The translations under genes and the position numbers were made by a program. From NCBI GenBank assembly GCA_033855155.1, contig JAWVGK010000391.1, positions 1 through 44,933 on the forward strand: a DNA stretch of 44,933 nt. The letters run 5' to 3'. Below the pieces are notes generated by a model. The model was not told the DNA's origin. It saw nothing but the letters and a program-made list of their open reading frames with translations, and made no database searches. This stretch comes from Solirubrobacteraceae bacterium. GTDB taxonomy: Bacteria; Actinomycetota; Thermoleophilia; Solirubrobacterales; Solirubrobacteraceae. Shown in pieces: positions 1,914 to 42,586 of the stretch. How positions within the stretch are numbered: the first letter of the stretch is position 1; each line of letters opens with the position of its first letter.

Positions 1914-2016
1914 GCCTTAAGGAGATGTCGGCGTTTGGGCGTCGCGGCTTGAGCCGCGCGGCGCTCGATCGAGCCTCCACACGCCGAACGCGCTCCGGCG
2001 TGGCACGATCGACGGC

Positions 2017-3414: not shown

Positions 3415-3444
3415 GTCCGGATCCGGACTAAGCTGAGGGGTCAC

Positions 3445-23550: not shown

Positions 23551-24528
23551 TCAGCCGCGCCCGCTCGCGAGCGTCAGCTCGCGAGCGCGCTCGGCAAGCT
23601 CGACGACGCCGGAGCCGAAGCTGCGCACCCACGGGTCGTCGGTGCTGCCGGCGAGCGCGCGGCGCAGGTTGCCCTCCATGAAGATCGCCGCCTTCCACAG
23701 CGCGAGCGTGCGATACCAGCCGATGTCCGTCACCGACCGCCCGCTGGCGGCCTCGTAGCGCGCGACGAGTTGCTCGCGGGTGGGGAACCCCTCGCCGCGC
23801 GTGACGTCCGACAGCGCGAACATGCCCAGCGGCGGGTCGTCGCACTGCACCCACAGCGCGCACAGGTAGCCGACGTCGGCCAGCGGGTCGCCGACGGTCG
23901 CCATCTCCCAGTCGAGGATCGCGGCCAGCCGCACCGGCGCGCCGGGCGCGAAGATCGCGTTGCCGAGGCGGTAGTCGCCGTGCACGATCGTCGCCGGGCT
24001 CGAGCGCGGCAGGCGCTCGCGCAGCCACGCGCCGACCTGCTCGATCGCCGGGACGTCGCGCGTGCGGTGGTGCTCCCAGAGCCCGCCGAAGCGCCGCAGC
24101 TGGCGCTCGAGGTAGCCGCCGGGATCGCGCGAGAAGCCGTCCAGGCCGCACGCGCGCCAGTCGACCGCGTGGATCTCGACGAGCGCGTCGACGAGCTCCT
24201 CGGCGCAGCGTGCTCGCTGCGCCGGCGTGTCGAGCGCGGCCGGCAGCGCCGCCGTCACGACGTCGCCCGCGACGCGCTCCATGACGTAGAACGGCGCGCC
24301 GACGACCGCTTCGTCGGCGCAGACCGCGAGCACGCGCGGCACGCGCGCCTGCGTGCCCGCGAGCGCGCGCAGCAGGCGCGCCTCGCGCAGGACGTCGTGC
24401 GTGCTCGGCGCCAGCGGCCCGCGCGGCGGGCGGCGCAGCACGAGCTCGCAGCCGCCGGGGCGCCGCACGAGGTACGTGACGTTCGAGTGGCCCTCGCCGA
24501 GCCGGCTCCGACGCTCCGACCTGTCCAC
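23551..24528 (-). CDS. APH-family phosphotransferase (acyl-CoA-dehydrogenase-associated kinase type), probably 5'-clipped
   Basis: GEGHSNVTYLV...VLRRPPRGPL, PFYVMERVAG, VHGDYRLGNAIF, and ILDWEMATVGDPLADV. Only 12 residues precede the GxxSNxTY block, and the GTG start abuts the junction at ~24530. Confidence 0.85.
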   Translation of the reverse strand: MDRSERRSRLGEGHSNVTYLVRRPGGCELVLRRPPRGPLAPSTHDVLREARLLRALAGTQARVPRVLAVCADEAVVGAPFYVMERVAGDVVTAALPAALDTPAQRARCAEELVDALVEIHAVDWRACGLDGFSRDPGGYLERQLRRFGGLWEHHRTRDVPAIEQVGAWLRERLPRSSPATIVHGDYRLGNAIFAPGAPVRLAAILDWEMATVGDPLADVGYLCALWVQCDDPPLGMFALSDVTRGEGFPTREQLVARYEAASGRSVTDIGWYRTLALWKAAIFMEGNLRRALAGSTDDPWVRSFGSGVVELAERARELTLASGRG

Positions 24529-24529
24529 G

Positions 24530-24818
24530 TACGCCGGTGCCCGATGCGGTCGTAGGTAGGGACGCGAACGCGCGCTCCTGCAAGCGCCGCGTCCAGCGTA
24601 GCCATCAAGAGGTCACTATCTAGGCTAGCGATGCTGTCGAAGTTCACACTTCCAAGCTCGTCAGCCGCCAGGTGGGAGCGGTCGGGGTAGTAGTCGTCCA
24701 TGCACAGAACTGTGGCCGCGCCCCGGAACCCCGCGGCGACCTCGGCGGCGAGACGCGACTTGCCAGCGCAGGTGCCACCCGCAATCGCGAGGCACACCGG
24801 GGCGCGCCGGCGACTCAT
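24530..24818 (-). pseudogene. Uridine/cytidine-kinase (Udk/PRK family) gene truncated after about 95 codons
   Basis: APVCLAIAGGTCAGKSRLAA...VLCMDDYYPDRSHLAADELGSVNFDSIASLDSDLLMATLDAALAGARVRVPTYDRIGHRR aligns block-for-block with the N-terminal half of Udk. After HRR the frame reads out-of-frame through the APH gene as Arg/Ala/Ser junk, down to 24255. Confidence 0.65.
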
Positions 24819-25846
24819 CCGACTGAGACAGCCGCGGCTGAATTGCGCGCCCGTGTCAGGATCAGGTCCCCACCATCGGTCTCATCGTCCATCACGTTCT
24901 GTACCTCTTGCAGAAGGTCAGAGCATCGAGAATCCGAGAGGCGCGGATCGAAACAAGCGATCGACGTTCCCCAGCTGCTCATTCCCGCCCCTGCGACGCC
25001 GAGCTCTGACCGGAGCCTCCTTAGAATACGTCCGATTCCGACTACCTGAGCATCGATCTCGAATGCTTTCCAGCAATGGTCTTGCACGTCCCACAGACTA
25101 CGACCAAAAGCCGAGAGGTTGCACTCTGCGACCGCGGGCAGCAGCCGCATAAGCAGGAGGTGCGTGAGGGACCGGACGTCGTCAAGGGGCACCGGGCATA
25201 CTTCCGCGAAAAGGCTTGCCTCAAGCGGCCCGTGGATCTCCCTGCCGTGCGGCGTCAGGAGGAGTATCGGCCAGGCTGGAAATCTCATCCGCGACAGCAA
25301 TGGTGGGATTCGCATCGTTGTAGAGAACGCGGACGGACGGTAGCCTGCGTCTGTCTGGTTCTTATCAGCAAAACTATGACCGCCATCCACAATAAGACCG
25401 CCGCGCTCAAATCCGTACATGCCAATTCCAGATGTTCCACCGCGTGCCGTGACGCGCCCAAGCGACTCAAGATCGAGATGCTTGTCGTAGACGGCGGTCG
25501 CTGCGGTAGCAACCGCAAGAAGGGTCTGGGTCTTGGCGCCGAGACCCGTATGGGGCATCGGGCAGGTGTCGATTCGCACCGCCCAGTCGCCTGTGTCGGT
25601 GACGTCACGAACGCGGTCCAGAACCTCGTGGACCTGGGGCTCAAACGCAGCTATCTGTGAGGTCGCCACCAATGACGACCATTGCACGTCGCGCGTAGGC
25701 GCCGCGGTGGCGGCCACTCTAACGGCAGGGTCCTCCAGCATGAATCCCACACCGCCATCGACGCGGTTGGACACAGTCCCGTGCATATCAATCAACGTAA
25801 TGTGAAACCGCGCACCACCCGTGACGGTAACGGTCTTGTTAGTCAT
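24815..25846 (-). CDS. Beta-ribofuranosylaminobenzene-5'-phosphate (beta-RFAP) synthase-like GHMP-family enzyme
   Basis: GGARFHITLIDMHGTVSNRVDGGVGFMLEDPAVRV, PHTGLGAKTQTLLAVATA, and ARGGTSGIGMYGFERGGLIVDGGH. The ATG at 25844-25846 follows GGAGGA. Its stop overlaps the Udk-like ATG as ATGA. Confidence 0.8.
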   Translation of the reverse strand: MTNKTVTVTGGARFHITLIDMHGTVSNRVDGGVGFMLEDPAVRVAATAAPTRDVQWSSLVATSQIAAFEPQVHEVLDRVRDVTDTGDWAVRIDTCPMPHTGLGAKTQTLLAVATAATAVYDKHLDLESLGRVTARGGTSGIGMYGFERGGLIVDGGHSFADKNQTDAGYRPSAFSTTMRIPPLLSRMRFPAWPILLLTPHGREIHGPLEASLFAEVCPVPLDDVRSLTHLLLMRLLPAVAECNLSAFGRSLWDVQDHCWKAFEIDAQVVGIGRILRRLRSELGVAGAGMSSWGTSIACFDPRLSDSRCSDLLQEVQNVMDDETDGGDLILTRARNSAAAVSVG

Positions 25847-25877
25847 GCTCCTCCATACGCCAAGCGCCCAGGGCGGC

Positions 25878-26909
25878 CTACGGGACACTTGTGTTGGTAG
25901 CGGGCGCCAGTGTAGTCGACGGCGACGGTGCCGAGGACGAATCGTCGAGCCGCGCCGTGATGAACGCGCCCACGGCCCCGCCACCGAGAGCCGTGGCGAT
26001 CGTCACGAGCAAGAGGACCCAGTATCGGCGGCTCTCCCGCAACGAGGACTGCCTGGCATCGGACTCCCGCCTGTATTTCGCCTCCGCGTCTTTGAACGCG
26101 CTCTCGAGCTCCTTGACATCCTCCTCGATCTCCGCCACTTGTCGCGTCATCCGCCCCGCCTCTGCGCGCACCTCTTCCATCGCGGTGCGAACCGACGTGG
26201 CGTCGGATACCAACTCCGAAACGCGGGCCGGGAGCGACGGCTGATCGTCAAGCCCGGCTGAGAGCAAGCGCCGATGCTCCGCCAGATGTGCGGTGATAAC
26301 GTCGAATGGTGGGCCAAGCTCCGGTAGCTCATCGAGCTGCTTTGAGGTGGTCGTCGCGCCGGGTCGCCACGTCGGGTAGAGATGTACGTCGGGCCAGACG
26401 CTCGGTGGCTCCTCAGGTCCCGATTGCGAGTATGCCGGGGTCTCCTCCCACGCTTCGGGCAGCTCGTTGCGGGCCAACTCCAGCACGAGGAGTTTGGCGA
26501 TTCGCTCCTGGCCGACCCGAAACGGTTGCGACGGGAAGTTCCGGAGGTTCTCGAGGGTCAGGGTCGTCGTGTGCTGGAAGCCCGGATCGATTGCCGTAGC
26601 TGGATGCGATACACCGCCCGCAAGCAGTCTCGCGCCGGCGATAATCAGGCCCCAGTAGATCGGCGCGCCTTTCGCATCAGCTAAGCAGAACTTCTCATTG
26701 ATTTCGACATTTACCACCTCCCCGGGACCAAGCCTCAGTAGTCCATCGACTTCTCGATAAGTGGCCTCCCCGGCAGACACCGACTGCACGTGGCTTCCTA
26801 AGGTGAGATGATAAAACAAACCGTCGCAGTTCTGGCGACGAAAGTTGGCACGGATCACGAGGCCCTTGCCTGCTAGTTCCTCAATCTCGGCCGCGTTCAC
26901 AATCCGCAT
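25878..26909 (-). CDS. dCTP-deaminase/dUTPase-fold (Dcd-like) domain protein with a coiled coil and C-terminal TM anchor
   Basis: The N-terminal ~165 aa align with E. coli Dcd: MRIVNAAEIEEL, YHLTLG, LGPGEVVNVEINE, ATAIDPGFQHTTTLTLENLRN, and VGQERIAKLLV. A charged heptad-like stretch follows (MEEVRAEAGRMTRQVAEIEEDVKELESAFKDAEAKYRRE). The TM helix YWVLLLVTIATALGGGAVGAFITA lies at 25953-26024. The ATG at 26909 follows GGAGGGA. Confidence 0.7.
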   Translation of the reverse strand: MRIVNAAEIEELAGKGLVIRANFRRQNCDGLFYHLTLGSHVQSVSAGEATYREVDGLLRLGPGEVVNVEINEKFCLADAKGAPIYWGLIIAGARLLAGGVSHPATAIDPGFQHTTTLTLENLRNFPSQPFRVGQERIAKLLVLELARNELPEAWEETPAYSQSGPEEPPSVWPDVHLYPTWRPGATTTSKQLDELPELGPPFDVITAHLAEHRRLLSAGLDDQPSLPARVSELVSDATSVRTAMEEVRAEAGRMTRQVAEIEEDVKELESAFKDAEAKYRRESDARQSSLRESRRYWVLLLVTIATALGGGAVGAFITARLDDSSSAPSPSTTLAPATNTSVP

Positions 26910-29101
26910 GGTCTTTCCCTCCAAGTAGCCGTGGTAGCGCCGTCGCCGACGGCGGCGCTTGGCGTCTCGCCAGTGCGGTTCGACTTCAACCGCCAAGCGT
27001 GGAGTGGATGAAGCGATGCGCCCACGGGGCAATCGCCACCCGTCGCTTGCCAAGCGTTGAAGATGGCACTCGCGGTGGCGATCGCGGCCGGCTCCCCAAG
27101 TCCGGGGGTCGTCGCAATGTCGCGCTCGTCCCCAAGCAGCTCGACTTGAATAGCGGGGAGTGCGGAACTGCGAAGGAAAGTCACCGCCTGCGCCGCGTCG
27201 GCGCCGCCAACCAGCGCTGCGCTCGCAGCCATCGCGGCACCCCCATGGACCTGCGCTTCCGCTGCCTTGTGGTCGACGATGAGTCCGAGGTCGTGGACGG
27301 CCACCACGGCCTCGAGCGTGATCCCACCGGTTTGTCGGTCGACTTGAATTCTTACTACGTGGCCGCCGGCCGCATACACGGGATAGTGGATGCCGAGTTC
27401 CTCGGAGATCTCAGGGTCGTAACGTCCCATCCCGCCAAGGTCGCGCCCAAGCAAATCGCGTATCTGGTCAAGTGTTAGTACGTCGCGCCGTCCTGATGAG
27501 CCGCATAGCAATGTACCGGATGGCGTCCACTCAACCTCGTCCCAGGCACCGGCTACCCTGACCGCCTTCGCGGCACCATCCAGCAGGTCGCGGATGGCAC
27601 GCACAACAGCGTTGCCGACGAAATGGACCGTCCGACTGGCAGACGTCTTCCCTGAATCCGGCAAACTAGTGGTATCACCACGGACCAGCTCGATGTCGCG
27701 CAACCCGATTCGGAACTCCCTCGCACAAATCGCGCGGAGAGCCTTGTGGCTTCCCTGGCCCATGTCGGACGTACTCGTGTACAGCCTCACCCGACCATGA
27801 CCAACGTATTCGACGCGCGCGGCGGCTGGGTTCCGCTGACCGGTGTTGCCAATGCCGTACAGAAATAACGCAAGCCCGACGGCAGACGTCGCATCCCGTG
27901 TCTCTCGAGTGGCATCCGCCAGGAGGCGGTCGCGCGCCTCGGCGCACCGCTCCAGAGACCGCGCGATCTCAAGCGACGGTCCAACCGTCTGACCATTGCC
28001 AAGCTTCTGTCCTGGTCTTGCAACGTTACATCTTCTGAGCTTAATCGGATCTATTCCTGTTTGTCGCGCGAGCCTCTCGATGCTGTCCTCCAGCATCACC
28101 GTCAGGGGCCCGACACCAAAACCGCGGAACGCAGACGCAGGGCGGTCGTTGGTCCAGACCAAGGTGCCCTCGGCATATACGCTCCGTACGTGGTATGGGC
28201 CGGCAGCGTGCGCGAGGATGCGACGAAGCACTCCGCCACCATAGGAAGAGTATGCGCCCGCATCGACGCGGGTCGACAATCGCAACGCGACCAGCCGCCC
28301 ATCCGGGTCGCACCCGAGCACGAGATCAGCTCCGATGCCATTGCTGTGCGGCCCAAACATACGATGCTCCGTAGGAGTTATCGCGATAGAGACGCTACTG
28401 CGGAGCACGAACGCGGCAAGGGCGGCGAGGCAAGGAAGCAGGGGATCCAGTAGTCCTCCGAACGAGCCCCCGGAGGGACCCCCGCGTATGGTCACCGCGT
28501 CCGGCTCACAAGCGAGCATGTCAGCGACCTGGTGACGCAGTTCAAACGGCGCGTGACACGCGGTCCACACCACCAGGTGGTCTCCTTTCCACGCGGAGAC
28601 ACACGAGTCCGGTCGCAAGTATGCGTGTCGCACGGGGGGGAAGTGATACCGCCCGCTAACCCAGTGCGCGGCAGATGCCATCGCCTCAGCAGTGGCACGA
28701 GAATTCCCTAGAGACTGCCGCGCCAGTGTGTGCGACTCCAGGTAGTCGCCACCCAGATCTTCCATCAGGACAGGGCGGTATGCGGCGGGCGCGGCGGTCG
28801 TGGCAACGCGCAGATCGCGGCGCGCCGACTGATCGGAAGATCCGTGTGGCACGGCCAGCAGTGCGAGAACCTGACCGCGATAGCGAATCTCGTGTCGTGG
28901 GAGCACGACCTCATCACGAGCAAGGGGCCCGATGAATCCCTCCCCGGGGATATCTCTCGCGGTGATCAAACGTGCGAGCGGCCGCGAATTGCCGAGCGTG
29001 AGCGATTCGAGGCGTCCCGCGGCAACATCGCTCCGCACCGGTATCACCGTCCATTTGGGGCGCGGCGGACACGTCTCCCCATCGACGTCAGCTGACGCCA
29101 C
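26897..29101 (-). CDS. Xanthine-dehydrogenase/aldehyde-oxidase-family molybdopterin-binding large subunit homologue
   Basis: 734 aa with a GTG start. Hammerhead-like N-terminus: ARLITARDIPGEGFIGPLARDEVVLPRHEIRYRGQVLALLAV. Also FRGFGVGPLTVMLEDSIERLARQTGIDPIKLRRCN, SDMGQGSHKAL, and C-terminal PGLGEPAAIATASAIFNA, which retains the Glu position. Confidence 0.85.
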   Translation of the reverse strand: MASADVDGETCPPRPKWTVIPVRSDVAAGRLESLTLGNSRPLARLITARDIPGEGFIGPLARDEVVLPRHEIRYRGQVLALLAVPHGSSDQSARRDLRVATTAAPAAYRPVLMEDLGGDYLESHTLARQSLGNSRATAEAMASAAHWVSGRYHFPPVRHAYLRPDSCVSAWKGDHLVVWTACHAPFELRHQVADMLACEPDAVTIRGGPSGGSFGGLLDPLLPCLAALAAFVLRSSVSIAITPTEHRMFGPHSNGIGADLVLGCDPDGRLVALRLSTRVDAGAYSSYGGGVLRRILAHAAGPYHVRSVYAEGTLVWTNDRPASAFRGFGVGPLTVMLEDSIERLARQTGIDPIKLRRCNVARPGQKLGNGQTVGPSLEIARSLERCAEARDRLLADATRETRDATSAVGLALFLYGIGNTGQRNPAAARVEYVGHGRVRLYTSTSDMGQGSHKALRAICAREFRIGLRDIELVRGDTTSLPDSGKTSASRTVHFVGNAVVRAIRDLLDGAAKAVRVAGAWDEVEWTPSGTLLCGSSGRRDVLTLDQIRDLLGRDLGGMGRYDPEISEELGIHYPVYAAGGHVVRIQVDRQTGGITLEAVVAVHDLGLIVDHKAAEAQVHGGAAMAASAALVGGADAAQAVTFLRSSALPAIQVELLGDERDIATTPGLGEPAAIATASAIFNAWQATGGDCPVGASLHPLHAWRLKSNRTGETPSAAVGDGATTATWRERPCGL

Positions 29102-29103
29102 AG

Positions 29104-29529
29104 CTAGGCGTTGTAGACGCGACCCGCGCGGTGGCTCTGGATCGCGAGGTCAACCGCGCCAAAGAGGGGGCTGGGAAGAGCGTCGAACCGGTACCAATCC
29201 CAATTCTCCACGCGGTCAGGCTCCGTGATACGCGGACTGCCGTCAAAGTCGGTGCACACGAACTCGACATCGACGTAATGCTTGCCGTAGCCAAGGAGGT
29301 TGCTGACACATAAGAACTTGAGCTCGCCCGCGGCAATCCCGGTCTCCTCCAGCACTTCACGACGGGCTGCTTCTTCGAGCGTCTCGCCAAACTCGACGTG
29401 TCCGCCGCACCAGCCGTAGGTAGACACCCCGTGAGCCCCTCGCCGCTTTCCGAGGAGCACTAGTCCAGCCGAGTCCAGCAACATCACGCCTACACCAACC
29501 TTTGGGCGTTCGCCTTCTGCTGTCTTCAT
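29104..29529 (-). CDS. Nudix hydrolase
   Basis: Nudix box GGHVEFGETLEEAARREVLEETG at 29338-29406. The stop lies 2 nt before the next gene's start. Confidence 0.9.
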   Translation of the reverse strand: MKTAEGERPKVGVGVMLLDSAGLVLLGKRRGAHGVSTYGWCGGHVEFGETLEEAARREVLEETGIAAGELKFLCVSNLLGYGKHYVDVEFVCTDFDGSPRITEPDRVENWDWYRFDALPSPLFGAVDLAIQSHRAGRVYNA

Positions 29530-29553
29530 GTGGTCGTCCCTTGCTCGTTAGCG

Positions 29554-30525
29554 CTACCAGACTGACGCGTCGGCGGGAGAGCCCAAGTCAACGCGGTCGA
29601 GCCACCAGCGCAGCTCTGCAGCAGCCACCCGGTCGCCATACGCCGTGGGCTCATCTGCCGTAGCGTAGCCCGTGTTGTATTCCATGTACACGTCGGACTG
29701 CCGATATACCGTCACATCGTCCATGGCTCCGATGCCGTAGCGCACCAACCAGAGTGGCGAATTAGGAAGGTCTCTTCCCGCCTCATCCAGCAGCTGCCGA
29801 ACCGTGCGTGCCGTGACGTCCCGGTCTACCTCATGACCTATCAGGCGGGCTAGGGTGGCCGCCTCCACGATGATCACATCGACCCGTCGAATAATGATCA
29901 AAAGCTCAGCGTAGGTGATGAACCGGTCGAGGTCGTGGGGCACGAGGTCAATGCACACGAGACCGCCGCCGTCGTTAGTCACAGTGATCGCAGTGTCGAC
30001 GGCGCCGCTTGATGACGACGTGAGCAGCGAGTAACCGTCTACGACCAACAGGTCTGACGCCGACAGTTGGGACCGATAAGCGAGTACGTCCCTCGGAGCC
30101 AGGAAATGGCTCGGGGCGGGCTGACTTGAGATGAGGACACGCGTCCCTTGCGACGAACCTGCCGACGGAGCGTCGCGAACGATGAGCACGACTCCGTTCG
30201 GCACATCAGGAATCTGGGTCAGGAGTGGTGTGACGCCGAGATCATGGAAATGGGCTTGTACGACCGACGAGTAGGCATCGCACCCGACAGCGGCGAGCAC
30301 GTTGACGGCAGCAAAGTGCTCCACTGCGTAGCGGGCGAAGTTGGCAGCCGTGCCGGCTATCGAAAGTGCGATCGGCGCGAACTCGAAGTGGTCTGTGCTG
30401 ACATCAGCAAAGCGAGTCGCAAGGCGGGATCGGACGTCGATACGCACGTCTCCCAACACGGTGACGGTATAAGCTCGTGGCTGCCTTTCCGTGGTAGCAA
30501 GGAGGTGAGTGGGCGAGGTGAGCAT
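29554..30525 (-). CDS. PfkB/ribokinase-family sugar or nucleoside kinase (divergent)
   Basis: VTVLGDVRIDV, IAGTAANFARYA (compare GGKGANQA), and C-terminal DEPTAYGDRVAAA (compare the DTTGAGD anion-hole/catalytic Asp block). There is no clear RBS at the ATG, so the start is uncertain. Confidence 0.7.
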   Translation of the reverse strand: MLTSPTHLLATTERQPRAYTVTVLGDVRIDVRSRLATRFADVSTDHFEFAPIALSIAGTAANFARYAVEHFAAVNVLAAVGCDAYSSVVQAHFHDLGVTPLLTQIPDVPNGVVLIVRDAPSAGSSQGTRVLISSQPAPSHFLAPRDVLAYRSQLSASDLLVVDGYSLLTSSSSGAVDTAITVTNDGGGLVCIDLVPHDLDRFITYAELLIIIRRVDVIIVEAATLARLIGHEVDRDVTARTVRQLLDEAGRDLPNSPLWLVRYGIGAMDDVTVYRQSDVYMEYNTGYATADEPTAYGDRVAAAELRWWLDRVDLGSPADASVW

Positions 30526-30898
30526 GGCACGGGAGGCTCGATCTGCGTCGCTAGACGCGGGCGCAGCTGGCAGCGACTGGCGAAGGATCGCCGCCCTTTA
30601 TATCGTGTTTTGACGCTGCGCCCATATCATTCGGCCTTGGGAATACGCGCTGACCCATAGTGCTCTCCGGCCAAGCTACGACCAATCTCGATGCCGAAGA
30701 TCACGCACATCGCGCGTATGCTCGAGCCAGTCGGTGCCAAGCTCGGCAACGACGACGAGCGTGAAAGGATCGCGGCGCTGAGGACGTCCCCCTCTGAAGA
30801 GAGCCGCAGGGTGGCTTCAGCGTCACGAGTTCCCGACGACCAGTCCAGAGCAGTAGACGCCGGGCACGTGCTTCCCGGAGCACCAGCCCCAGCGAGGT

Positions 30899-33238
30899 AT
30901 GGGAGCGCTCGTCTGCCGCTCGCCGCGCTGTCACCGAGTCCGGGGCACTGTCAACGTGTATAGCGCACCGTCGACGAGTCTCGCCGATGACGATTGGTCG
31001 CGCTATGACTCGTGGAACGCAGCGATTGCTGAGGAGTTCTTCGGGGGCCGATGGGGTGGCCGGCCGGTGTATCTCGACCTGGAGGACGACGTCCTCGAGC
31101 GCGTCACGCGGACGGCCCAGGCGACCGGCCCCGATGAAGCGCCCGATCTGATCGCCGCCGTTCGTCCCACGCTACGACTGGGCGAGCATGGGTCGCTGTT
31201 CGGCGCACATGCCGCGAGGCTCAGGCGCTGGCGAATCCAGAACCGGCAGGGACCGCCGCCGGTGCTAGGCGTCCTCGCGCTGCTGTCACTCGTCGCCGAG
31301 CAGATGCACACCGACGCGAAGTTCTCGGCGTCGAACTACTACGGGCGCTTCGTACAGCTCCTCGGTGGCGACACCGCCGACGAGCCACTTCGTCAGAAGG
31401 TGGTTCGCGGGTTCGCCGATCAATCGCACATCCTCTGGCGTGCCCTCAACGAATGGCTGTCGGAGGATCCCGCCGTTCGCGGGATCCCAACCGCATACGC
31501 TTTCGACTTCCGAGTTCACGTGGGCGTACCGATGTCGCAGGCCTTGGTGCGCGAGCCAGACCGACGGCGCCTTCAGGAGCTGTTTCTCGATGCTCGCTTG
31601 CGCCCTGGCGAGCGGTTGAGCCACAGCGACATGTTGAGACTGCTCGGTCAGTGGATCCCTGCCTCCTCCGTGAGCCGGACTCTCAAGGTCCTATGCCTCC
31701 AGCCCGAGGTGCTCGAGCGAGTCGCCGAGGTCGCATGCGTCGAGCTTGAGGCGTGGGGCGGGCAGGTCGACGTCGCATCCCCGGTTGCCAGATCAGAGCT
31801 CGCGCTCATCGCTCATCTGCGCGCCGTGCCGAGGCGGCGACTGGACCTGTCACTTGCGGCCAAGCTCCCGCTTGGGACGCACGCCGACGAGCTCGTGCTG
31901 TCTGATGATAGTGGCCCCGCAGCCATCCACGCTCTGGAACACGCCGACGGGCGACTGGAGCTCGACCCCCCGGATGAGGCCGGATGGCGCGCGGTGCGAA
32001 ACGCTCGAGATATCTCGATGCCGGACCTGCTGCTCGCGACGATGCACTTGTCCACCGTTACGGGCGCGGGGATCAGGAGGATTCCACGGCGGCTCATCCT
32101 CCTGGAACGTGACGAGACGATGCTTCGCTACGTCGAGGTCCCGCGAGCCCGGCTGGGCAACGAGTATCTGCTGCTCGCGATGGATGCCCTGCAAGGCGAG
32201 CTTGCGGCGGCGCTGGAGGAGGCCGCCCGTCCCGGGTATCGAGCGATTCGGCCCAAGTTCCTCCGGGGTTTACCGGAAGGGTGGATTGCGTACCTCGGTG
32301 TAGAGCTCATCGGGATCACCAGCAGCGATCGAGCAGACCTTGCGTCGCTCATCCCGGTCGCGTGGTCGCAGGTCAGCTTCTCTGGTGGCCTGAAGCTGCC
32401 TGGCCGCGCCAGCTGGCACCGGGACGATCCGCCGTCGCTGAACGCGACGTCGTTCGCAGGGGAGCCGGTTGATGCGGTGATCCATGCAGAGGCGGTCGAC
32501 GCGAGTGCAGAAGACGACGCCACCGATGAGACCCTGCTTCTTGGGCTCGTCGATGGCGCGGATGTCTTCGATCTGTCTTCCCTCGGCTTGGACAACGGCA
32601 GCTACCGGGGCGCGCTTGTGACCGCCGGCGACGCGAGCGTGATCGGGTCGGCGCCGTTGCGCCTTTCGTCGGCCTCGGAATCGGACGGTTCGGCAGCGAT
32701 GGGGGCCGGCACGCCCTTGGACAAGCCCGAGCTCGCACTTTTCGGAAGTTGGGGATCCGGTCTGACCCGTGGCGCCGATTGGCCGGAGACCGCGCCCGTC
32801 GATACAGCGCCAGGTTCCCTCCCGGCGAGGGGTCTGGTGTCACTCGCCCAACGAACGGTGGACGAGGAGCAGGACGACGAGCCTCCGCCAATTGCCCCGT
32901 CGCCGCAGCCGGCGAGCGTCGCGAACTGCCTGGAGACTGGCGCCCACTACTTCGTGCTTGACTCCCATGCCGGTCGCCGAGGTCTCGCCGACATGTTCGG
33001 CGGCGACTGCCGCTACTGCGGCTTGGAGAAGTTCTTCCCCGCTCGGCCGCGTCGGGGCAAGAAGGGTCAACGACGCGGAAGCGTCGGTGGACGCCGCGCC
33101 GCCCAGCTCCACGATGTCGTCCGAAGCCTTCAGAACGTCCCTCGGCGCAACGATCCCCAACGCATGGATCCAAACGTCCTGCTCGACGCGCTCTCGCTCA
33201 TTGGCGGCTCCGATTGGGTGTGCTGCAAAGGATGGTAG
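30899..33238 (+). CDS. Large hypothetical protein with no domain recognisable by eye; first gene of the helicase-DUF1998 module
   Basis: Track ORF of 779 aa with protein-like composition throughout. A late Cys cluster reads CLETGAHYFVLDSHAGRRGLADMFGGDCRYCG. An alternative in-frame GTG start is at 30956. Confidence 0.6.
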   Translation: MGALVCRSPRCHRVRGTVNVYSAPSTSLADDDWSRYDSWNAAIAEEFFGGRWGGRPVYLDLEDDVLERVTRTAQATGPDEAPDLIAAVRPTLRLGEHGSLFGAHAARLRRWRIQNRQGPPPVLGVLALLSLVAEQMHTDAKFSASNYYGRFVQLLGGDTADEPLRQKVVRGFADQSHILWRALNEWLSEDPAVRGIPTAYAFDFRVHVGVPMSQALVREPDRRRLQELFLDARLRPGERLSHSDMLRLLGQWIPASSVSRTLKVLCLQPEVLERVAEVACVELEAWGGQVDVASPVARSELALIAHLRAVPRRRLDLSLAAKLPLGTHADELVLSDDSGPAAIHALEHADGRLELDPPDEAGWRAVRNARDISMPDLLLATMHLSTVTGAGIRRIPRRLILLERDETMLRYVEVPRARLGNEYLLLAMDALQGELAAALEEAARPGYRAIRPKFLRGLPEGWIAYLGVELIGITSSDRADLASLIPVAWSQVSFSGGLKLPGRASWHRDDPPSLNATSFAGEPVDAVIHAEAVDASAEDDATDETLLLGLVDGADVFDLSSLGLDNGSYRGALVTAGDASVIGSAPLRLSSASESDGSAAMGAGTPLDKPELALFGSWGSGLTRGADWPETAPVDTAPGSLPARGLVSLAQRTVDEEQDDEPPPIAPSPQPASVANCLETGAHYFVLDSHAGRRGLADMFGGDCRYCGLEKFFPARPRRGKKGQRRGSVGGRRAAQLHDVVRSLQNVPRRNDPQRMDPNVLLDALSLIGGSDWVCCKGW

Positions 33239-34059
33239 GTCAGCACGACGATCGGCCTTGGGGCGCACTCGAGTGCGCCCGCACGCTCTCATGCCTCGGT
33301 CACCTGGACCTCAACATCGACCCACGGACCGTGCGTCCGACTCGGTGGTCGATCGCGCCAGCGACCATCGTGGTAACCGAGTCAGGTTCGTTCCTGGCCG
33401 GCTTCCGCTCCGACCGGCTGATCGCCGCGCTCACCGACCACGCAGTAGATCGAGGGCTACAGGTGACGCGAACGCCGGCGCCGAGTTCGCCGGATCGGAT
33501 CTCGTTCACCCCGCTCGGCGGCGCTGATGCACTCCAACTCGCAGACGCGATCCGAACCGACAGCAACCTCGCGGTTGGTGTCTGCGTCGATCCCTCGAAG
33601 CACCTCCTGGAGTGGTTGCCGTCGCTTGAGAAGCTTCGGATGACGCTCCCGTTGGACGACTTCGTGATCCATGAAGGACTGGAGCGATTCGATGTGACTA
33701 CCGGCCGTTGGGAGCCGGCGGGTACCTCTCGGGCCGAGGGTGCCTACCGCACCGCTCGCCTGCCGCGTCGCCACTGGCATCGGTCCAGCGGCGAGACGCG
33801 ACGTAGCCTTGACCCACTGTCGAAATGGCTAGCCGCCGCGGATGTCCAACCGCTGCTCGCGTACGACCCCGAGACCCAGCAGCTCGCCTGCCACGTCGGC
33901 TGTCCTCTACCTGCCCTCCACGAGCGCGCCGCTGTCCTCGCTACCGGGTGGACACCGTCTCACGTCGGCTCACACATGATCTACGGAGGCATCAATGACC
34001 GGCTCGCCGCGGCGTTGGCCCGTAAGCTACGTGTTCCGGTGATCCATGGCTCAGCCTGA
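33232..34059 (+). CDS. Hypothetical protein; second gene of the helicase-DUF1998 module
   Basis: Track ORF 33214..34059. The ATG at 33232 overlaps the upstream stop (ATGGTAG), and the 3' end overlaps the helicase start by 14 nt. No recognisable domain. Confidence 0.55.
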   Translation: MVGQHDDRPWGALECARTLSCLGHLDLNIDPRTVRPTRWSIAPATIVVTESGSFLAGFRSDRLIAALTDHAVDRGLQVTRTPAPSSPDRISFTPLGGADALQLADAIRTDSNLAVGVCVDPSKHLLEWLPSLEKLRMTLPLDDFVIHEGLERFDVTTGRWEPAGTSRAEGAYRTARLPRRHWHRSSGETRRSLDPLSKWLAAADVQPLLAYDPETQQLACHVGCPLPALHERAAVLATGWTPSHVGSHMIYGGINDRLAAALARKLRVPVIHGSA

Positions 34060-37000
34060 CCCCCTGCAGCTGCAGCAGCAGCTGTCGGCGGCATACCTGC
34101 GGTACTACGACACGGCCTTCCGCCTGCGCGATCCACAGCTCCGAATCGAGCGGCGGAGGCTGCTGGAGCGTCCGGGCACGGTGTTCACGCAGCCTCTGAT
34201 CGAGCCCGTGATCCCTTACCCCAGCAGCGTCTCCGTGCGGGATGCGTGCGCTGCGGCAGGCCTGCGGCCGGAGATCGCACCAACGCTGTCGCACATGCTC
34301 TTCCAGCAGGGCGAGGGCTTCGGGCTGCGCGAGCATCAAGCTGAAGCGCTGAGGATCTCGCTGTCCCCGCCCGACACCGACCGGCGCCACGTCGTCGTCA
34401 CATCAGGCACCGGCTCGGGCAAGACCGAGTCGTTCCTGCTTCCGATCTTCGCGCGTCTGCTCTCGGAGGCGCTTGACGAGGGAGCCGAGCCAGCGCTGCG
34501 TCGCTGGTGGGATCGCGACGCCCCCGCAGGACGATGGCGGAGCGCGAGACCGGACGGAGGCCGCCCGCCCGCGATGCGAGCCATGATCCTGTACCCAACC
34601 AACGCGCTGGTCGAGGACCAGATCTCCCGGTTGCGGCGCGCCATCTCACTGGCTCCGCGCCAGGGCGGCGGACCTGCGCTGTACTTCGGTCGTTATACGG
34701 GGGCCACGATCGGGGGCGGGGAGCTCCCGACGACGATGAGCGACCCTCGTGTCCGGGAAGTCGCTCTGCAGCTCCGACTGATGGAGCGAGAGCGCAACGG
34801 GCTGGCCGGGGTCGACATCGAGGTAGCAGGGCAGTTCGCCGAACCCAGGGAGGGCGAACTGATCGTCCGATGGGACATGATCGTGACCCCGCCAGACGTG
34901 CTCGTGACGAACTACTCGATGCTCAACGTGATGTTGCTGCGCGATCGCGAGTCATCGCTCTTCGGTGCAACGCGCGACTGGCTCGCCGGGGATCCCAAGC
35001 GCGTCTTCACGCTCGTCGTCGACGAGTTGCACGGATACCGAGGGACGCAAGGCAGCGAGGTGGCGCTCGTCGTGCGCAACCTCCTACGACGCCTTGGGCT
35101 CTCCGGAGACAGCCCGCAGCTTCGGTGCATCGGAACGAGCGCATCGCTCGACGGCGAGGAGGGACTGGAGTTCCTCGAGCAGTTCTTCGGCGCACCGCGA
35201 GACAGCTTCCACGTCACCGCCGGTACACCAGAGCAGATCCCGGACGTCGACTTCACAGACCTCCAGCTCGATCGAGTGCCCCGGGACGGAGCGCCTCGCC
35301 TTGACCAGGTGGTTGCCGCCGCATGTCGCGACGCCGATGGCATCCGGGCACGAACGATCTCGCAAGTCCAGCGTCGACTCTTTGGGGACGGCGATCACAA
35401 CCGCGAGTCGATGAGGCGAGTGCTCTCCCTCGTGGCTGAGCAGGGTGACAAATCGGGCCTGATCTCATTTCGATCGCACCACTTCGTCCGGATGATCCGC
35501 GGTTTTTGGGCGTGCTCCGATCCGGACTGCGAAGTCGCGGATCGGTCGGATCACCAGCCTAGGTCCGTCGGGCGCCTGTATTCGATCCCCACCGCCCGCT
35601 GCGAGTGCGGGGCACGGGTGCTCGAGCTCCTGTACTGCAACCAGTGTGGTGAGGTCTCGCTTGGGGGCTTCGTCGCGGTCCCCGACAGCGACGAGCCCCA
35701 AGACGGCGAGGGCTGGTACCTCAGTGCGCTTCCGAGCGTGCCGCGCGTCGCCGAGCAACTCGTGTTCCGCCGTGGTTGGGGTGAGTACATGTGGTATTGG
35801 CCCGGGGAGTGTCCAACTGACGTCAACCCGTGGCGACACTCGCTCGACGAAGGAGCGCTTCAGCTCCGGTTCGGGCCGGCAGAGCTCGATCCACGCACAG
35901 GCGTGCTCTCGCCGGCCCCGCGCCCACTCGCAACGGGGACGATGATGACGCTATCTCGCCGCCTCGCCGACCTTGCGCCGCGACGTGTGCCGGCCCTCCC
36001 CGAGCGGTGTCCGCGGTGCGACGCCGCGGGCTTCAACCGCGACCCACGCACCTTCTTCAGAGGGCTCGTCAGATCGCCGATCCGCGCACACACCACCGGC
36101 GTTGCACGTGTGAACCAGGTGTTGCTCGACAGGGTGGTCCGAAACGTCGCCGAGCGTCCCCAGGATGGTCGCACCATCGTGTTCACGGACAGCCGTGACG
36201 ACGCTGCCGGGACGGCTGCTGGGGTCGAGACCAACCACTTCAGGGACCTCATCCGGCAGGTGGTGACGCAAGAGCTTGCCGTGGCCGACAGCCCTGCGAC
36301 GATCATGCGCCGCGCTGCGCATGGCCAGGATCTGACATCCGATCAGCAGAGCCTGCTTCCGCTCTACAAAGGTGACGCTCCAGACGTCTGGAGCGCGATG
36401 CGGCTCGATGCTCGTGGACTAGCCGAACCCGACGATCTGTCGCTCATCGCGGCGTACATCGGCCAGCACGGGGGCGAGTCGAGACGCCTGCCCTGGGAGG
36501 TGCTGCGGCAGCGGGTGGAGCGCCGACTCGTGAGCCTGGGCGTCAACCCAGCGGGGTCAGCACCGTCCGCCGCGACGTTCGGCCCACACCCATGGTGGCT
36601 CCTTCATGCATCCCCTCATGGCCAGTGGACGCAGCTAGCGGCAGAGATCCGTGCCGACGGGCAAGCGGAGGCCCGGACGCGACTGGACAACCATCTCGCC
36701 GACGCGCTGTTCAACCGCGGAGGGCGGGACTTCGAATCGGTCGGCCTCGGTTGGTTTGAGCCCGCCCGCACGATCACCGGCCAACTGCCGTTACCGACCG
36801 GATCAGACTCGGAGACCATCCGCTCGACGATCCGTCTTCTTGCCCTCTCGGGCCGTTACCCAGGCACACGCTGGGACGCCACGGGACCCGGTCAGGCGCT
36901 CAGGCGATACCTCAAGGCGGTTGGTGCGCGTCACGACGTAGACCCAAAGACACTCGAGCAGTTGCTCGAGGATCTGCTCGCCGACGCACGCGTCACACGG

Positions 37001-39364: not shown

Positions 39365-39481
39365 CCTCGCAGCGCACGCGTCCAGGCGCTCGGGGACTGC
39401 TGATCTGCAGCTCGCACCGCGAGAGCCCGTATCACAACCAGGGTCCTTCCGGTTCAAGTCCGTGGTTAGACGGCATCGTCC

Positions 39482-40702
39482 TCATGCCGCCTTCGCGCGT
39501 CGGCGTCGCGGCGCCATCGACCGCGGTGCTGCAGAGACGCGCCGCAGGGGCAGGGGAGCGACGGGCGCGCCTTCGATCGACGCCTGCCGAGCCTGGAAAG
39601 CGTGTCCGACCGCGAGCGCGACATAACGGGCAAGACGGGGCGGCACGGCGTTGCCGATCTGCCGGAACTGGGCATTTCGAGACCCCTTCCACTCCCAGCC
39701 CTCGGGGAAGCTCTGGAGTTCGGCAGCCTCCTCGACAGTAATGCGCCGCAGCGGATGCGGACGCTTGAGGTGCGGCTGCCCCGCGGCGAGTCGGGTGTGG
39801 TGGCGGCAGACCCACGGAGTGACGAAGACGTCTGGGTGGGCAAGCCGGGCCGCGAGCTCCTTGCAATCAACGATCGGGGTGCCGTTGCCGCCCATCGACG
39901 CTGGCAACGTGCGTGCAACCGCGTCGAGTTCGAGGGGACGGCCAGAGCCGTTGAAGAGCAGACTCCCCTTGTACGGGCTCGGCCGCATCACGGCCTTCTT
40001 GGCCAGCACTACCCGGGCCGTGCAGCTTGAGTCGTTCCCCACCTCGCCGAAGGCCGGTAGTCGCTGTAGCGCCTCGAGCACAGTCAGCGGGCGAGCCGCC
40101 GTCATGGGCACCGGGAACAGCGGAGGACCGTCGCGCACTCCGACCAGGAACATGCGCTCGCGGGCTTGCGGGACCGTGTAGCTCGCCGCATTCAGGACCG
40201 CCGACCCTACGGTGTAGCCGAGTTGCGTGGCCCGCGCGATCAGCCCGTCGTACACGGGCTTCCACCGTGCGCTGGTCGCGAAGGCCTTCACGTTCTCCAT
40301 GCAGAACACGGCTGGCTGGTACGCGCGCACCGCGTCCATGAACGCGTGTATGTGCTGTGAACGGGGATCCTGCGGGTCCATCAGCCCGATGACTGAGAAG
40401 CCCTGGCACGGTGGGCCGCCGATGATGACGTCCGGATTGAACTTGCCGGGGCGCGGGAGCTTCCTCAGCGCGGCAGGGAGGTCGCCGAGGACGATGTGAT
40501 CACCGATGTTCGCCGCATACGTGTCGACTGCGGTCTGATTCGCTTCAACAGCGTAGGAGATCTGGAAGCCCGCGTCCATGAAGCCGCGGTCGAGCCCTCC
40601 CGCGCCCGAGTACAGCGAAAGTACCTGCAGTCCCTCGCCCGGACGTTCTCCCAACCACGGCCCGCACAGAGATTCCCAGTCGGGGGTCGGAACATCGGAC
40701 AC
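39482..40702 (-). CDS. dcm: DNA (cytosine-5)-methyltransferase
   Basis: Motif I LSLYSGAGGLDRGF, motif IV GGPPCQGFS (40394-40420), motif VI ENV, and motif X QIGNAVPPRLA. I chose the GTG at 40700-40702, 50 nt after the vsr stop. The track ORF extends to 40837 and would overlap vsr. Confidence 0.9.
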   Translation of the reverse strand: MSDVPTPDWESLCGPWLGERPGEGLQVLSLYSGAGGLDRGFMDAGFQISYAVEANQTAVDTYAANIGDHIVLGDLPAALRKLPRPGKFNPDVIIGGPPCQGFSVIGLMDPQDPRSQHIHAFMDAVRAYQPAVFCMENVKAFATSARWKPVYDGLIARATQLGYTVGSAVLNAASYTVPQARERMFLVGVRDGPPLFPVPMTAARPLTVLEALQRLPAFGEVGNDSSCTARVVLAKKAVMRPSPYKGSLLFNGSGRPLELDAVARTLPASMGGNGTPIVDCKELAARLAHPDVFVTPWVCRHHTRLAAGQPHLKRPHPLRRITVEEAAELQSFPEGWEWKGSRNAQFRQIGNAVPPRLARYVALAVGHAFQARQASIEGAPVAPLPLRRVSAAPRSMAPRRRRAKAA

Positions 40703-40752
40703 TGCTCGATTGTCGCCCGCGACGCGGACGCCATCTATGGCTGCGCGCGACA

Positions 40753-41190
40753 CTAGCACCGCTCGGCGACGACTCGGGCGACGCGCTCCGCGACCGTCGC
40801 GGGATCCTCGTGCTCCCAAGCGCGCACCACGAGCCACCCTCGCGATGAGAGCTGGGCATTGGTGTCTGCGTCACGGGCGACGTTGTTGGCGAGCTTCGGC
40901 GACCAGTACGCAGCGTTCGACGCCGGCTGCGTCCCATGCTCCGGGCATGCGTGCCAGAAGCACCCATCGACGTACACCGCGACGCGTGACCGCGTGAAGA
41001 CCAGATCCGGCCGCGTCCAGCGGCGACCGTCTAGCTTGATGGTGTAGCGCGTGCGGAACCGCAAGCCCCGGCGGTGGACCAGCGAACGGAGGGCCAACTC
41101 AGGCGTCGTGTCGCGGCTGCGGTTCCCGCGCATGACGCTCGACGTCGCCGTGGAGTTCGCAACAGGCCAGTTCGGGTCGCCCGGCTTCAT
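40753..41190 (-). CDS. vsr: Very-short-patch repair endonuclease
   Basis: SSVMRGNRSRDTTPELALRSLVHRRGLRFR, RPDLVFTRSRVAVYVDGCFWHACPEH, and NVARDADTNAQLSSRGWLVVRAWEHE. Confidence 0.9.
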   Translation of the reverse strand: MKPGDPNWPVANSTATSSVMRGNRSRDTTPELALRSLVHRRGLRFRTRYTIKLDGRRWTRPDLVFTRSRVAVYVDGCFWHACPEHGTQPASNAAYWSPKLANNVARDADTNAQLSSRGWLVVRAWEHEDPATVAERVARVVAERC

Positions 41191-42490: not shown

Positions 42491-42586
42491 CCGACGCCTA
42501 CTTTGGCGGCGAGGCCGTGGCGCGCGACCGACCGGCGCCGAGCGGTTCACCCAAGGCCGGTCGGTGTGAGCGCGTCGTATCCGGAT

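Follow-up and report, generated by a model that had tools for sequence, protein, structure and literature searches.

Introduction

What do six nucleotide-tailoring genes, packed into one operon beside a phage-defense system, make or control? We address this question for a minus-strand operon in a 44,933-nucleotide stretch of DNA from a Solirubrobacteraceae bacterium (contig JAWVGK010000391.1 of assembly GCA_033855155.1; hereafter the window), which encodes a PfkB-family kinase, a Nudix hydrolase, a molybdenum (Mo) hydroxylase subunit, a membrane-anchored protein resembling dCTP deaminase (Dcd-like), a member of the family of beta-ribofuranosylaminobenzene 5'-phosphate (RFAP) synthases and the remnant of a Udk-like kinase (Table 1). 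The reading that we favor, and in which we place about as much belief as doubt, is that the operon is a 3'-truncated copy of a rare, mobile actinobacterial cassette that makes a C-ribonucleotide and controls its phosphorylation. A first-pass annotation had recognized no named system in this gene combination; indeed, no PADLOC model represents it, and the literature yielded no description of it, nor of RFAP-type enzymes in phage defense.

Results

The RFAP-like enzyme

The product of the fifth gene passes the family profile TIGR00144 (beta_RFAP_syn) with 230.5 bits against a cut-off of 113.5, and it aligns to the structure of the formycin-pathway enzyme ForT (6yqq; E 6.6e-29) in such a way that R19, T106 and R135 of ForT, shown by mutagenesis to be essential for the binding of phosphoribosyl pyrophosphate (PRPP), correspond to its R13, T106 and R135, and that its GHMP phosphate loop HTGLGAKT corresponds to ForT H99-S104. 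Judged from these alignments, it is a predicted PRPP-dependent C-glycoside synthase of its family. The sole chemistry known for the family is an electrophilic substitution by a PRPP-derived oxocarbenium ion on an electron-rich aromatic carboxylate, and the RFAP-synthase reaction is biosynthetic and irreversible, CO2 and pyrophosphate being lost. The family assignment of the first-pass annotation stands, with the correction that the closest relatives are archaeal synthases and not ForT: the protein is one of about 12 that form a clade with 43-55% identity and clade-specific motifs, and the next group consists of archaeal RFAP synthases at 35-40%.

Like ForT and PyfQ, which build formycin and pyrazofurin in Streptomyces, the enzyme is actinobacterial, of the same family and predicted to perform the same chemistry, from PRPP and an aromatic carboxylate to a C-ribotide. 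Its partners, however, are a Mo subunit, a Nudix hydrolase, a dUTPase-fold protein and PfkB, Udk and dTMP-kinase-like (Tmk) kinases, and no pyrazole-forming enzymes or purine-pathway paralogues (PurA/B/C/H-like) occur among the neighbors in the window operon or the related loci examined. A ForT-type biosynthetic gene cluster was rejected because these partner genes are absent.

The archaeal RFAP synthases (MptG/MJ1427/MTH0830) are the nearest characterized relatives, with which the protein shares the GHMP loop and the equivalents of D19 and R26, two residues implicated in the binding of para-aminobenzoate (pABA) in the M. thermautotrophicus enzyme. This likeness, at 35-40% identity, would fit a genuine pABA-dependent RFAP synthase of methanopterin (tetrahydromethanopterin, H4MPT) cofactor biosynthesis, yet we consider that role hardly credible: the protein falls below the methanopterin equivalog NF040726 (260.6 bits against a cut-off of 328), forms a separate clade, never stands beside H4MPT genes, and is accompanied by nucleotide kinases and pyrophosphatases. 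Linkage to H4MPT or methylotrophy genes, which the first-pass annotation had named as evidence that would tell against its reading, was not found, there being no H4MPT, dihydropteroate-synthase-like or one-carbon-transfer genes in the window or in about 12 related loci, and the methanopterin pathway was rejected for want of these partners. To our knowledge, PRPP-dependent C-glycoside synthases of known role are confined to the methanopterin, formycin and pyrazofurin pathways. The cassette would appear to work like the ForT/PyfQ step of C-nucleoside biosynthesis outside those clusters, with the RFAP family employed outside the methanopterin pathway.

Among the archaeal relatives, many RFAP synthases of the Methanomicrobiales (P0028-P0034 and others) are fusions of about 510 aa with the chorismate-lyase-like domain PF01947 (DUF98), which fits a direct supply of 4-hydroxybenzoate to the synthase; this domain was not found alongside the actinobacterial RFAP-like clade.

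Table 1. Features of the operon and of its immediate surroundings in the window
Feature	Position	Strand	Evidence
Divergent PfkB-family (ribokinase-like) kinase, operon gene 1	29554-30525	-	Pfam, ortholog motifs
MutT/NUDX1/NUDT15-like Nudix hydrolase	29104-29529	-	Pfam NUDIX, Nudix box, PDB matches
Stand-alone Mo-hydroxylase (xanthine dehydrogenase/aldehyde-oxidase family) Mo-binding subunit	26897-29101	-	MoCoBD_1, MoCoBD_2
Dcd-like tail-anchored dUTPase/Dcd-fold membrane protein	25878-26909	-	Profile against PDB, AlphaFold2, Foldseek
Beta-RFAP-synthase-family PRPP-dependent C-glycoside synthase (predicted)	24815-25846	-	TIGR00144, ForT alignment
Udk/PRK-family kinase 5' remnant, about 95 codons, P-loop GGTCAGKS, pseudogene	24534-24818	-	NCBIfam profile
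Deletion/recombination junction, Udk-like remnant to APH-family gene, left edge of low-GC island	24528-24545	.	
Divergent intergenic region of 373 bp, operon to druF	30526-30898	.	Sequence
Neighboring Druantia type II, outside the operon	30899-40837	.	PADLOC DruF2 E 6e-116 and 7e-30; DruE2 1565 bits; DruM2 E 7e-59
druF (split)	30899-33238 and 33214-34059	+	
druE	34046-39364		
druM	39482-40837	-	

Related loci

About 12 other contigs carry the gene set in conserved order, with 35-75% identity at the amino-acid level (Table 2; loci L001-L010, with L011 and L048-L051 more distant). That the genes might keep company in this genome only, a possibility raised by the first-pass annotation, is contradicted by the conserved order on independent contigs. 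The closest relative, L004, is 52-75% identical across the proteins, has an added NT5C nucleotidase, and represents a complete operon of about 7 kb. The cassette is nevertheless very rare: a search of 5.8 billion proteins gave only 12 relatives of the Dcd-like protein, and pattern scans for it in the GTDB species genomes, in IMG/VR and in JGI metagenome contigs returned no relative. A second pattern scan of GTDB, for the RFAP clade, returned relatives of at most 35% identity only, mostly archaeal RFAP synthases, with two hits in bacterial metagenome-assembled genomes. The outcome of such scans depends on the pattern and does not prove absence. When phage and plasmid collections were searched by tblastn with the RFAP-like and the Dcd-like protein, no close relative emerged.

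Table 2. Gene order in the window and in related loci
Locus	Gene order
Window	PfkB-Nudix-Mo-Dcd-like-RFAP-Udk'
L004	PNP-HEAT-CDA, then PfkB-Nudix-Mo-Dcd-like-RFAP-PRK-Tmk-NT5C
L006	Nudix-Mo-Dcd-like-RFAP-PRK-Tmk
L002, L005	Mo(paralogue)-Tmk-PfkB-Nudix-Dcd-like-RFAP-PRK
JGI contig	Mo(paralogue)-PfkB-Nudix-Dcd-like-RFAP; Tmk not called, last gene not identified
L007	Tmk-PfkB-Nudix-Dcd-like-RFAP-PRK
L001	Decayed copy beside an integrase
L009, L010	PRK-RFAP with a different, ribokinase-like PfkB

The composition of the related copies varies. The Mo paralogue of L002 and L005 is only 24% identical and occupies a different position, L009 and L010 carry a PfkB protein that is not orthologous, and L048 has a Nudix ortholog beside a sister RFAP-like gene; these three independent recruitments to RFAP-like genes make hitch-hiking a poorer explanation than functional coupling. 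Where an intergenic region takes the place of the Mo gene (L001, L002, L005 and L007), it contains no conserved element.

L001 and L002, both from sample ERZ25039538, encode an identical Dcd-like protein (P0004); one copy is accompanied by a Mo subunit and full kinases, the other stands beside a phage-type integrase without a Mo gene and without an intact Tmk or PRK call, though tblastn shows similarity to both. The two copies are consistent with duplication or mobility of the cassette. In L004, positions 395-3685, upstream of the operon, hold three translationally coupled genes for a PNP_UDP_1 protein (methylthioadenosine-nucleosidase-like), a 641-aa HEAT-repeat protein and a cytidine-deaminase-like (CDA) protein, which the other loci do not have and which could be an addition to the pathway or a separate module.

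In the more distant loci L048, L049 and L050 (546-4303), the sister RFAP-like gene (42% identity) and the Nudix ortholog (47%) occur with genes for an EamA protein, an IspD/MobA-like nucleotidyltransferase and a CDP-alcohol phosphatidyltransferase, which indicates that the RFAP-like/Nudix pair is an older two-gene module in more than one pathway. In L051 (8001-12316), another bacterial RFAP-like gene (38%) is grouped with genes for PRAI, a zinc alcohol dehydrogenase, a DeoC aldolase and a Nudix protein of the NADH-pyrophosphatase type, apparently a further use of the RFAP family beyond methanopterin and the C-nucleoside antibiotics. L011 (Neorhizobium sp. EC2-8 plasmid NZ_CP147998.1, 2235-13347) has a distant RFAP-like gene in two pieces, probably frameshifted, in a cluster with a complete enzyme of the xanthine dehydrogenase (XDH) type (FAD, 2Fe-2S and Mo subunits), an Amidohydro_2 decarboxylase-family protein, a flavodoxin-like reductase, amidohydrolases and a luciferase-like oxygenase. 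It is a second, independent association of an RFAP-like gene with a Mo hydroxylase, and it looks catabolic.

L011 raises the question whether the cassette itself might serve the salvage or catabolism of an exogenous or modified nucleoside or N-heterocycle. The ribosyl compound would then be recycled by the kinases and pyrophosphatases, its ring hydroxylated for breakdown by the Mo enzyme, and an intermediate that is an aromatic acid ribosylated by the RFAP-like enzyme. Enzymes of the XDH family typically start the catabolism of N-heterocycles, L005 lies among sugar/peptide transport and MarR/regulator genes, and the PfkB family includes pseudouridine kinase, a weak match to NF007355 being seen. 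We nevertheless regard salvage as improbable, because the RFAP reaction is biosynthetic and irreversible, ring-cleavage, amidohydrolase and transporter genes are not conserved across the copies, and the extreme rarity of the cassette and its mobile-element context would be atypical for the catabolism of a nutrient.

Kinases and the Nudix hydrolase

All six family calls of the first-pass annotation hold, two of them with corrections given below (the Dcd-like protein is without the deaminase glutamate, the Mo subunit without partners), and those for the PfkB, Nudix and truncated Udk/PRK proteins are upheld by their Pfam and NCBIfam scores. No protein of the cluster is better conserved than the Nudix hydrolase (64-75% identity). 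It matches Pfam NUDIX with 70.9 bits (E 1.4e-19), has a perfect Nudix box GGHVEFGETLEEAARREVLEETGI (Gx5Ex7REUxEExGU), and in the PDB it is best matched by 4kyx, A. thaliana NUDX1 and human NUDT15 (E 1e-26 to 1e-19). Its closest relatives are enzymes that hydrolyze non-canonical nucleoside triphosphates (NTPs), and it is a predicted pyrophosphatase of such NTPs. The PfkB protein is divergent, with a Pfam E of 6.6e-9 at 36 bits (cut-off 25.8) and no PDB sequence match at E 0.01; among its orthologs, which are 34-53% identical, SGTAxNxA is kept and YGD, which falls where PfkB kinases have the catalytic Asp of GxGD, is invariant in five, and the Asn of the NxxE motif is lost. The Udk-like remnant covers only positions 5-98 of 210 in the NCBIfam uridine kinase profile, and the dTMP-kinase-like gene of the fuller copies matches TIGR00041 with 156.5 bits (cut-off 83.25). 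The accessory families are almost all those of pyrimidine nucleotides (Udk, dTMP kinase, CDA-like, dUTPase fold, NT5C), which suggests that the product is handled as a pyrimidine mimic.

The Dcd-like protein

The family of this protein was undetectable from the single sequence (Pfam scan and PDB search), and single-sequence as well as full-length-profile searches of the PDB were swamped by coiled-coil noise. An exhaustive profile search retrieved 51 relatives among 1.84 billion representatives; Pfam PF22769 (DCD) is matched by 36 of the 40 that were aligned. With a profile of the N-domain, the PDB matches were the archaeal dUTPases 9ln0 (E 8.5e-28), deposited under the title 'dCTP deaminase' and yet a dUTPase (P. 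furiosus P45), and 8y1w (E 4.2e-25), together with M. tuberculosis Dcd (E 5e-16; M. tuberculosis and E. coli Dcd in the range 1e-16 to 1e-13). An AlphaFold2 model of the N-domain, built on an alignment of 22 diverse relatives, reached a pLDDT of 92.6, and Foldseek placed it with probability 1.00 and a TM-score of 0.7-0.8 on 4xjc, 2qlp and 2j4h (Dcd-Dut, dUTPase).

The protein consists of a dUTPase/Dcd-fold domain (residues about 1-150), a long helical region and a C-terminal transmembrane helix (about 299-321). A helix at 226-321 was predicted in a low-confidence full-length AlphaFold2 model (12 sequences; pLDDT 49.5, N-domain below 50), and a long helix with a single C-terminal hydrophobic segment, followed by 5-32 residues, is found in all 12 close members. 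The core motif DPGF...N is present, with D108 and N121 invariant, and at the triphosphate-binding R-S-S position the cluster clade has (G/S/N)AR, where more distant relatives have K. At the column of the catalytic glutamate of the deaminases (E138 in E. coli Dcd; the Glu of ITLELSN in M. tuberculosis), the window protein and 17 of the 22 relatives have Thr and none has Glu; the archaeal dUTPases have Met. The protein is therefore a tail-anchored dUTPase-fold protein and not a deaminase, and it may act as a (d)NTP pyrophosphatase or as a nucleotide binder. Archaeal Dcd-like dUTPases (9ln0, T. pacificus 8y1w, S. tokodaii 2zdc) and Dcd-Dut share its N-domain fold and DPGF...N, and the monofunctional archaeal enzymes likewise are without the deaminase Glu, but the Dcd-like protein differs from them in a helical region of about 100 residues, the C-terminal transmembrane segment and (G/S/N)AR in place of RSS.

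The first-pass annotation had described a Dcd-like protein with a transmembrane anchor and had referred to antiphage depletion of dCTP; fold and C-terminal anchor are borne out, the deaminase precedent is not. There is some resemblance to the anti-phage dCTP deaminases, namely the fold of the Dcd superfamily and a Udk-type P-loop kinase nearby. In the protein of Tal et al. 2022, however, the kinase domain is reportedly fused in the defense protein, whereas here the kinase is separate with the RFAP-like gene in between, the protein is anchored in the membrane, and PADLOC gives no match. Since the catalytic Glu is absent and the nearest solved structures are archaeal dUTPases, the precedent is not transferable, and a defensive dCTP deaminase was rejected.

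The Mo subunit

The third gene encodes a Mo-binding subunit with matches to both Mo-cofactor-binding domains in Pfam (MoCoBD_1, 168 bits, E 2.4e-49; MoCoBD_2, 137 bits, E 1e-39), whose best solved relative is the nicotinate dehydrogenase of E. barkeri (3hrd, E 1.2e-35). GQG, TxASR and the catalytic GxGE (G667, G669 and E670) are invariant in the six aligned Mo subunits. Its corresponding motif reads GGSFGGLLD, like that of nicotinate dehydrogenase, and not GGGFGGK followed by the substrate Glu of XDH (bovine E802). The subunit scores far below all XDH equivalog cut-offs (256 against 830, for example), and neither the window operon nor any related copy of the cluster has genes for the FeS and FAD partners (Fer2_2, FAD_binding_5), which occur only in the unrelated L011 cluster. 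Of the 'xanthine-dehydrogenase-type' subunit named at the outset, family membership and GxGE therefore remain; it is nearest to nicotinate dehydrogenase and comes without electron-transfer partners, and a genuine xanthine dehydrogenase was rejected because of the low equivalog scores and the missing partner subunits.

Operon structure and truncation

The run of six co-directional minus-strand genes at 24530-30525 was confirmed, as were all three junctions reported earlier: a 2-nt gap between the Nudix stop at 29104 and the Mo-subunit GTG at 29101 (TAG-ct-GTG), a 13-nt overlap between the Dcd-like ATG at 26909 and the Mo-subunit TGA at 26897, and an ATGA overlap (24815-24818) between the RFAP-like and Udk-like genes. 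The N-termini of homologues place the true start of the Dcd-like gene at ATG 26909 and not at TTG 27053 of the longest open reading frame (ORF), and agree with ATG 25846 for the RFAP-like gene. That most genes have GGAGG-type ribosome-binding sites was an overstatement: GGAGG is clear only before the Dcd-like and RFAP-like genes, two of the six, the Nudix gene has AAGGGA, and no site is visible upstream of the PfkB, Mo-subunit and Udk-like genes. A promoter and terminator scan stayed at background level, with no sigma-70-like site in the 373-bp intergenic region; no Rfam family or riboswitch was detected in the operon or in eight related loci, and the intergenic region gave no match above noise.

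The Udk-like remnant is 53% identical to residues 4-104 of the 206-aa L004 ortholog and similarity to this full-length PRK protein ends at about residue 95-104, after which the frame enters an APH-family gene. This adjacent chromosomal gene (23551-24528) has itself lost about 30 N-terminal codons: residue 9 of what is left of its ORF already aligns to position 4 of the Pfam profile, where the match begins. The two clipped ends point to a deletion or illegitimate recombination that took away the 3' half of the Udk-like gene together with the 5' end of the APH gene; downstream Tmk and NT5C genes, if once present, were lost in the same deletion. An ORF of 187 aa at 24255-24818 is a chimera in which the APH gene is out of frame. 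Upstream of the break, all five genes are intact and close in length to their L004 orthologs. The window copy is a cassette cut short at its 3' end; the larger versions found elsewhere also have Udk-like and dTMP-kinase genes of full length, and in L004 an NT5C gene.

Genomic neighborhoods

The position of the operon at an island edge, claimed by the first-pass annotation, is confirmed by the fall in GC content from the APH gene (0.76) through the Udk-like remnant (0.68) to the operon (0.60-0.64), with about 0.67 further right. To the left lie core-genome genes (DbpA helicase, BacA, an Opp-type ABC transporter, aldehyde dehydrogenase and CtaG). No tRNA is present in the window, and thus no att-type landmark was found. 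To the right, 373 bp away and divergently transcribed, is a Druantia type II system. Its two overlapping druF ORFs cover positions 3-725 and 735-979 of PADLOC DruF2, a frameshift and hence either a pseudogene or a sequencing error; split druF and truncated Udk-like gene together suggest that the island is decaying. Beyond druM, two minus-strand ORFs (41288-42550, 420 aa; 42587-43474, 295 aa) have no Pfam or PADLOC match, and a third (43471-44676, minus strand) encodes a 401-aa protein of which about 150 N-terminal residues match PD-Lambda-5_A (E 3e-18); these ORFs at the right end of the window may be a further defense module.

The related loci also occupy changing surroundings. In L004, genes for MzaB/C/D, Vsr and a Dcm methylase lie 190 bp downstream; a Schlafen/AlbA_2 protein is encoded upstream in L006, and L009 has a TrwC relaxase, Lsr2 and a transposase. 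Such variable contexts (Druantia II, Mza, integrase, relaxase, transposase) indicate a cassette residing in variable or mobile DNA, and the expectation of the first-pass annotation that the genes sit in variable islands rather than in a core locus held across the related loci.

These surroundings invite the interpretation that the cassette is an anti-phage system, a sub-case of the favored reading in which, upon infection, a C-nucleotide analogue would flood the cell and poison phage polymerases, or the pyrimidine pool would be reshaped, the Nudix and membrane-anchored dUTPase-fold proteins protecting or regulating the host. The window operon adjoins Druantia II, with a PD-Lambda-5-like gene further along, the closest homolog abuts MzaBCD, Vsr and Dcm, L006 is near Schlafen/AlbA_2, and the cassette is rare, patchy and mobile. 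Bacterial viperins, which are genetically linked to nucleotide kinases, provide a precedent, and the Nudix protein weakly matches the PADLOC candidate PDC-S07 (E 3.6e-8). On the other hand, PADLOC v2.0 matched neither the other five proteins nor the wider Dcd-like family, there is no evident infection sensor, and the window copy, truncated and next to a split druF, appears to be part of a decaying island. A recognized defense system adjoins only two of about nine informative neighborhoods, which is suggestive but a small sample, and most neighborhoods are without recognized defense genes. We therefore treat the anti-phage function as a tentative possibility, one that we would sooner doubt than accept. 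The parallel to prokaryotic viperins lies in a possible nucleotide-analogue enzyme accompanied by nucleotide kinases in defense-island contexts; here, however, no radical-SAM enzyme is present, and PRPP would be the starting point of a de novo synthesis of the analogue, in place of the modification of an NTP.

Discussion

The reading of a C-ribonucleotide cassette sharpens the cautious interpretation of the first-pass annotation, which is partly supported. The cassette might operate as follows. The RFAP-family enzyme would couple PRPP to an electron-rich aromatic or heteroaromatic carboxylate, with loss of CO2 and pyrophosphate, to yield a C-nucleoside 5'-monophosphate, and the Mo hydroxylase would oxidize the ring, either before the coupling or on the product. 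One speculative activation would be the conversion of nicotinate to 6-hydroxynicotinate (an aza-4-hydroxybenzoate), with the hydroxyl group para to the carboxylate. The Udk-like, dTMP-kinase-like and divergent PfkB ribosyl kinases could then shift the product between nucleoside, monophosphate and di-/triphosphate, and the Nudix and membrane-anchored dUTPase-fold proteins could hydrolyze triphosphates to monophosphates, which would either safeguard the producer or feed or drain a competing pool. Most likely, the cassette yields an antimetabolite that serves in conflict, be it antiviral within the cell or an exported antibiotic.

Several observations weigh against this scheme. Only the RFAP-like and PRK genes are universal, the Nudix, Dcd-like and Mo genes being missing from L009 and L010, and no exporter, regulator or base-building enzymes are conserved across the cluster copies. 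The absence of FeS and FAD partners leaves turnover of the Mo subunit unexplained, and it would seem futile to combine kinases with two pyrophosphatases unless these enzymes differ in specificity. The lost Asn of the PfkB protein, the transport and regulatory setting of L005 and the few neighborhoods with defense systems point in the same direction, and the window copy may be only partly functional. Since the RFAP-like enzyme is nearer to archaeal enzymes acting on pABA or 4-hydroxybenzoate, the 'base' could also be a plain benzenoid and not pyrimidine-like.

Under the exported-antibiotic interpretation, the operon would be a compact cluster for a secreted C-nucleoside antimetabolite, in which the RFAP-like enzyme builds the scaffold, the Mo subunit tailors the base and the Nudix and NT5C proteins dephosphorylate the product for release, and the Udk, Tmk and dUTPase-like proteins would be self-resistance safeguards that favor the natural pyrimidine pool. 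RFAP-like synthases build formycin and pyrazofurin, the minimycin C-nucleoside cluster has 'safeguard' nucleotide enzymes, the host is actinobacterial by its GC content (one family member is from a Micromonospora genome), and the sister clade pairs the RFAP-like and Nudix genes with an EamA transporter. Yet exporter, regulator and base-building genes are not conserved, the ForT/PyfQ pathway partners are absent, and two of the contexts are defense islands and not typical regions of biosynthetic gene clusters, so that we consider this interpretation rather unlikely.

Returning to the favored reading of a mobile C-ribonucleotide cassette, the operon and its relatives define a separate and very rare clade of RFAP enzymes wired to kinases, two NTP pyrophosphatases and a Mo hydroxylase, and carried on mobile DNA beside phage-defense systems. 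C-nucleosides are privileged antiviral and antibiotic scaffolds (formycin, pyrazofurin, the drug remdesivir). A new kind of immunity or chemical conflict, in which a hydrolysis-resistant C-nucleotide analogue is made de novo and fed to viral polymerases by pyrimidine-type kinases, the Nudix and dUTPase-fold proteins shielding the host, is an outside chance in our estimate; if this were true, it would be the first defense built on a C-glycoside synthase. If the cassette does make a new C-nucleotide, this would represent a new natural product, possibly a new principle of nucleotide-analogue immunity, and a compact set of enzymes with which C-nucleotides could be made by biocatalysis.

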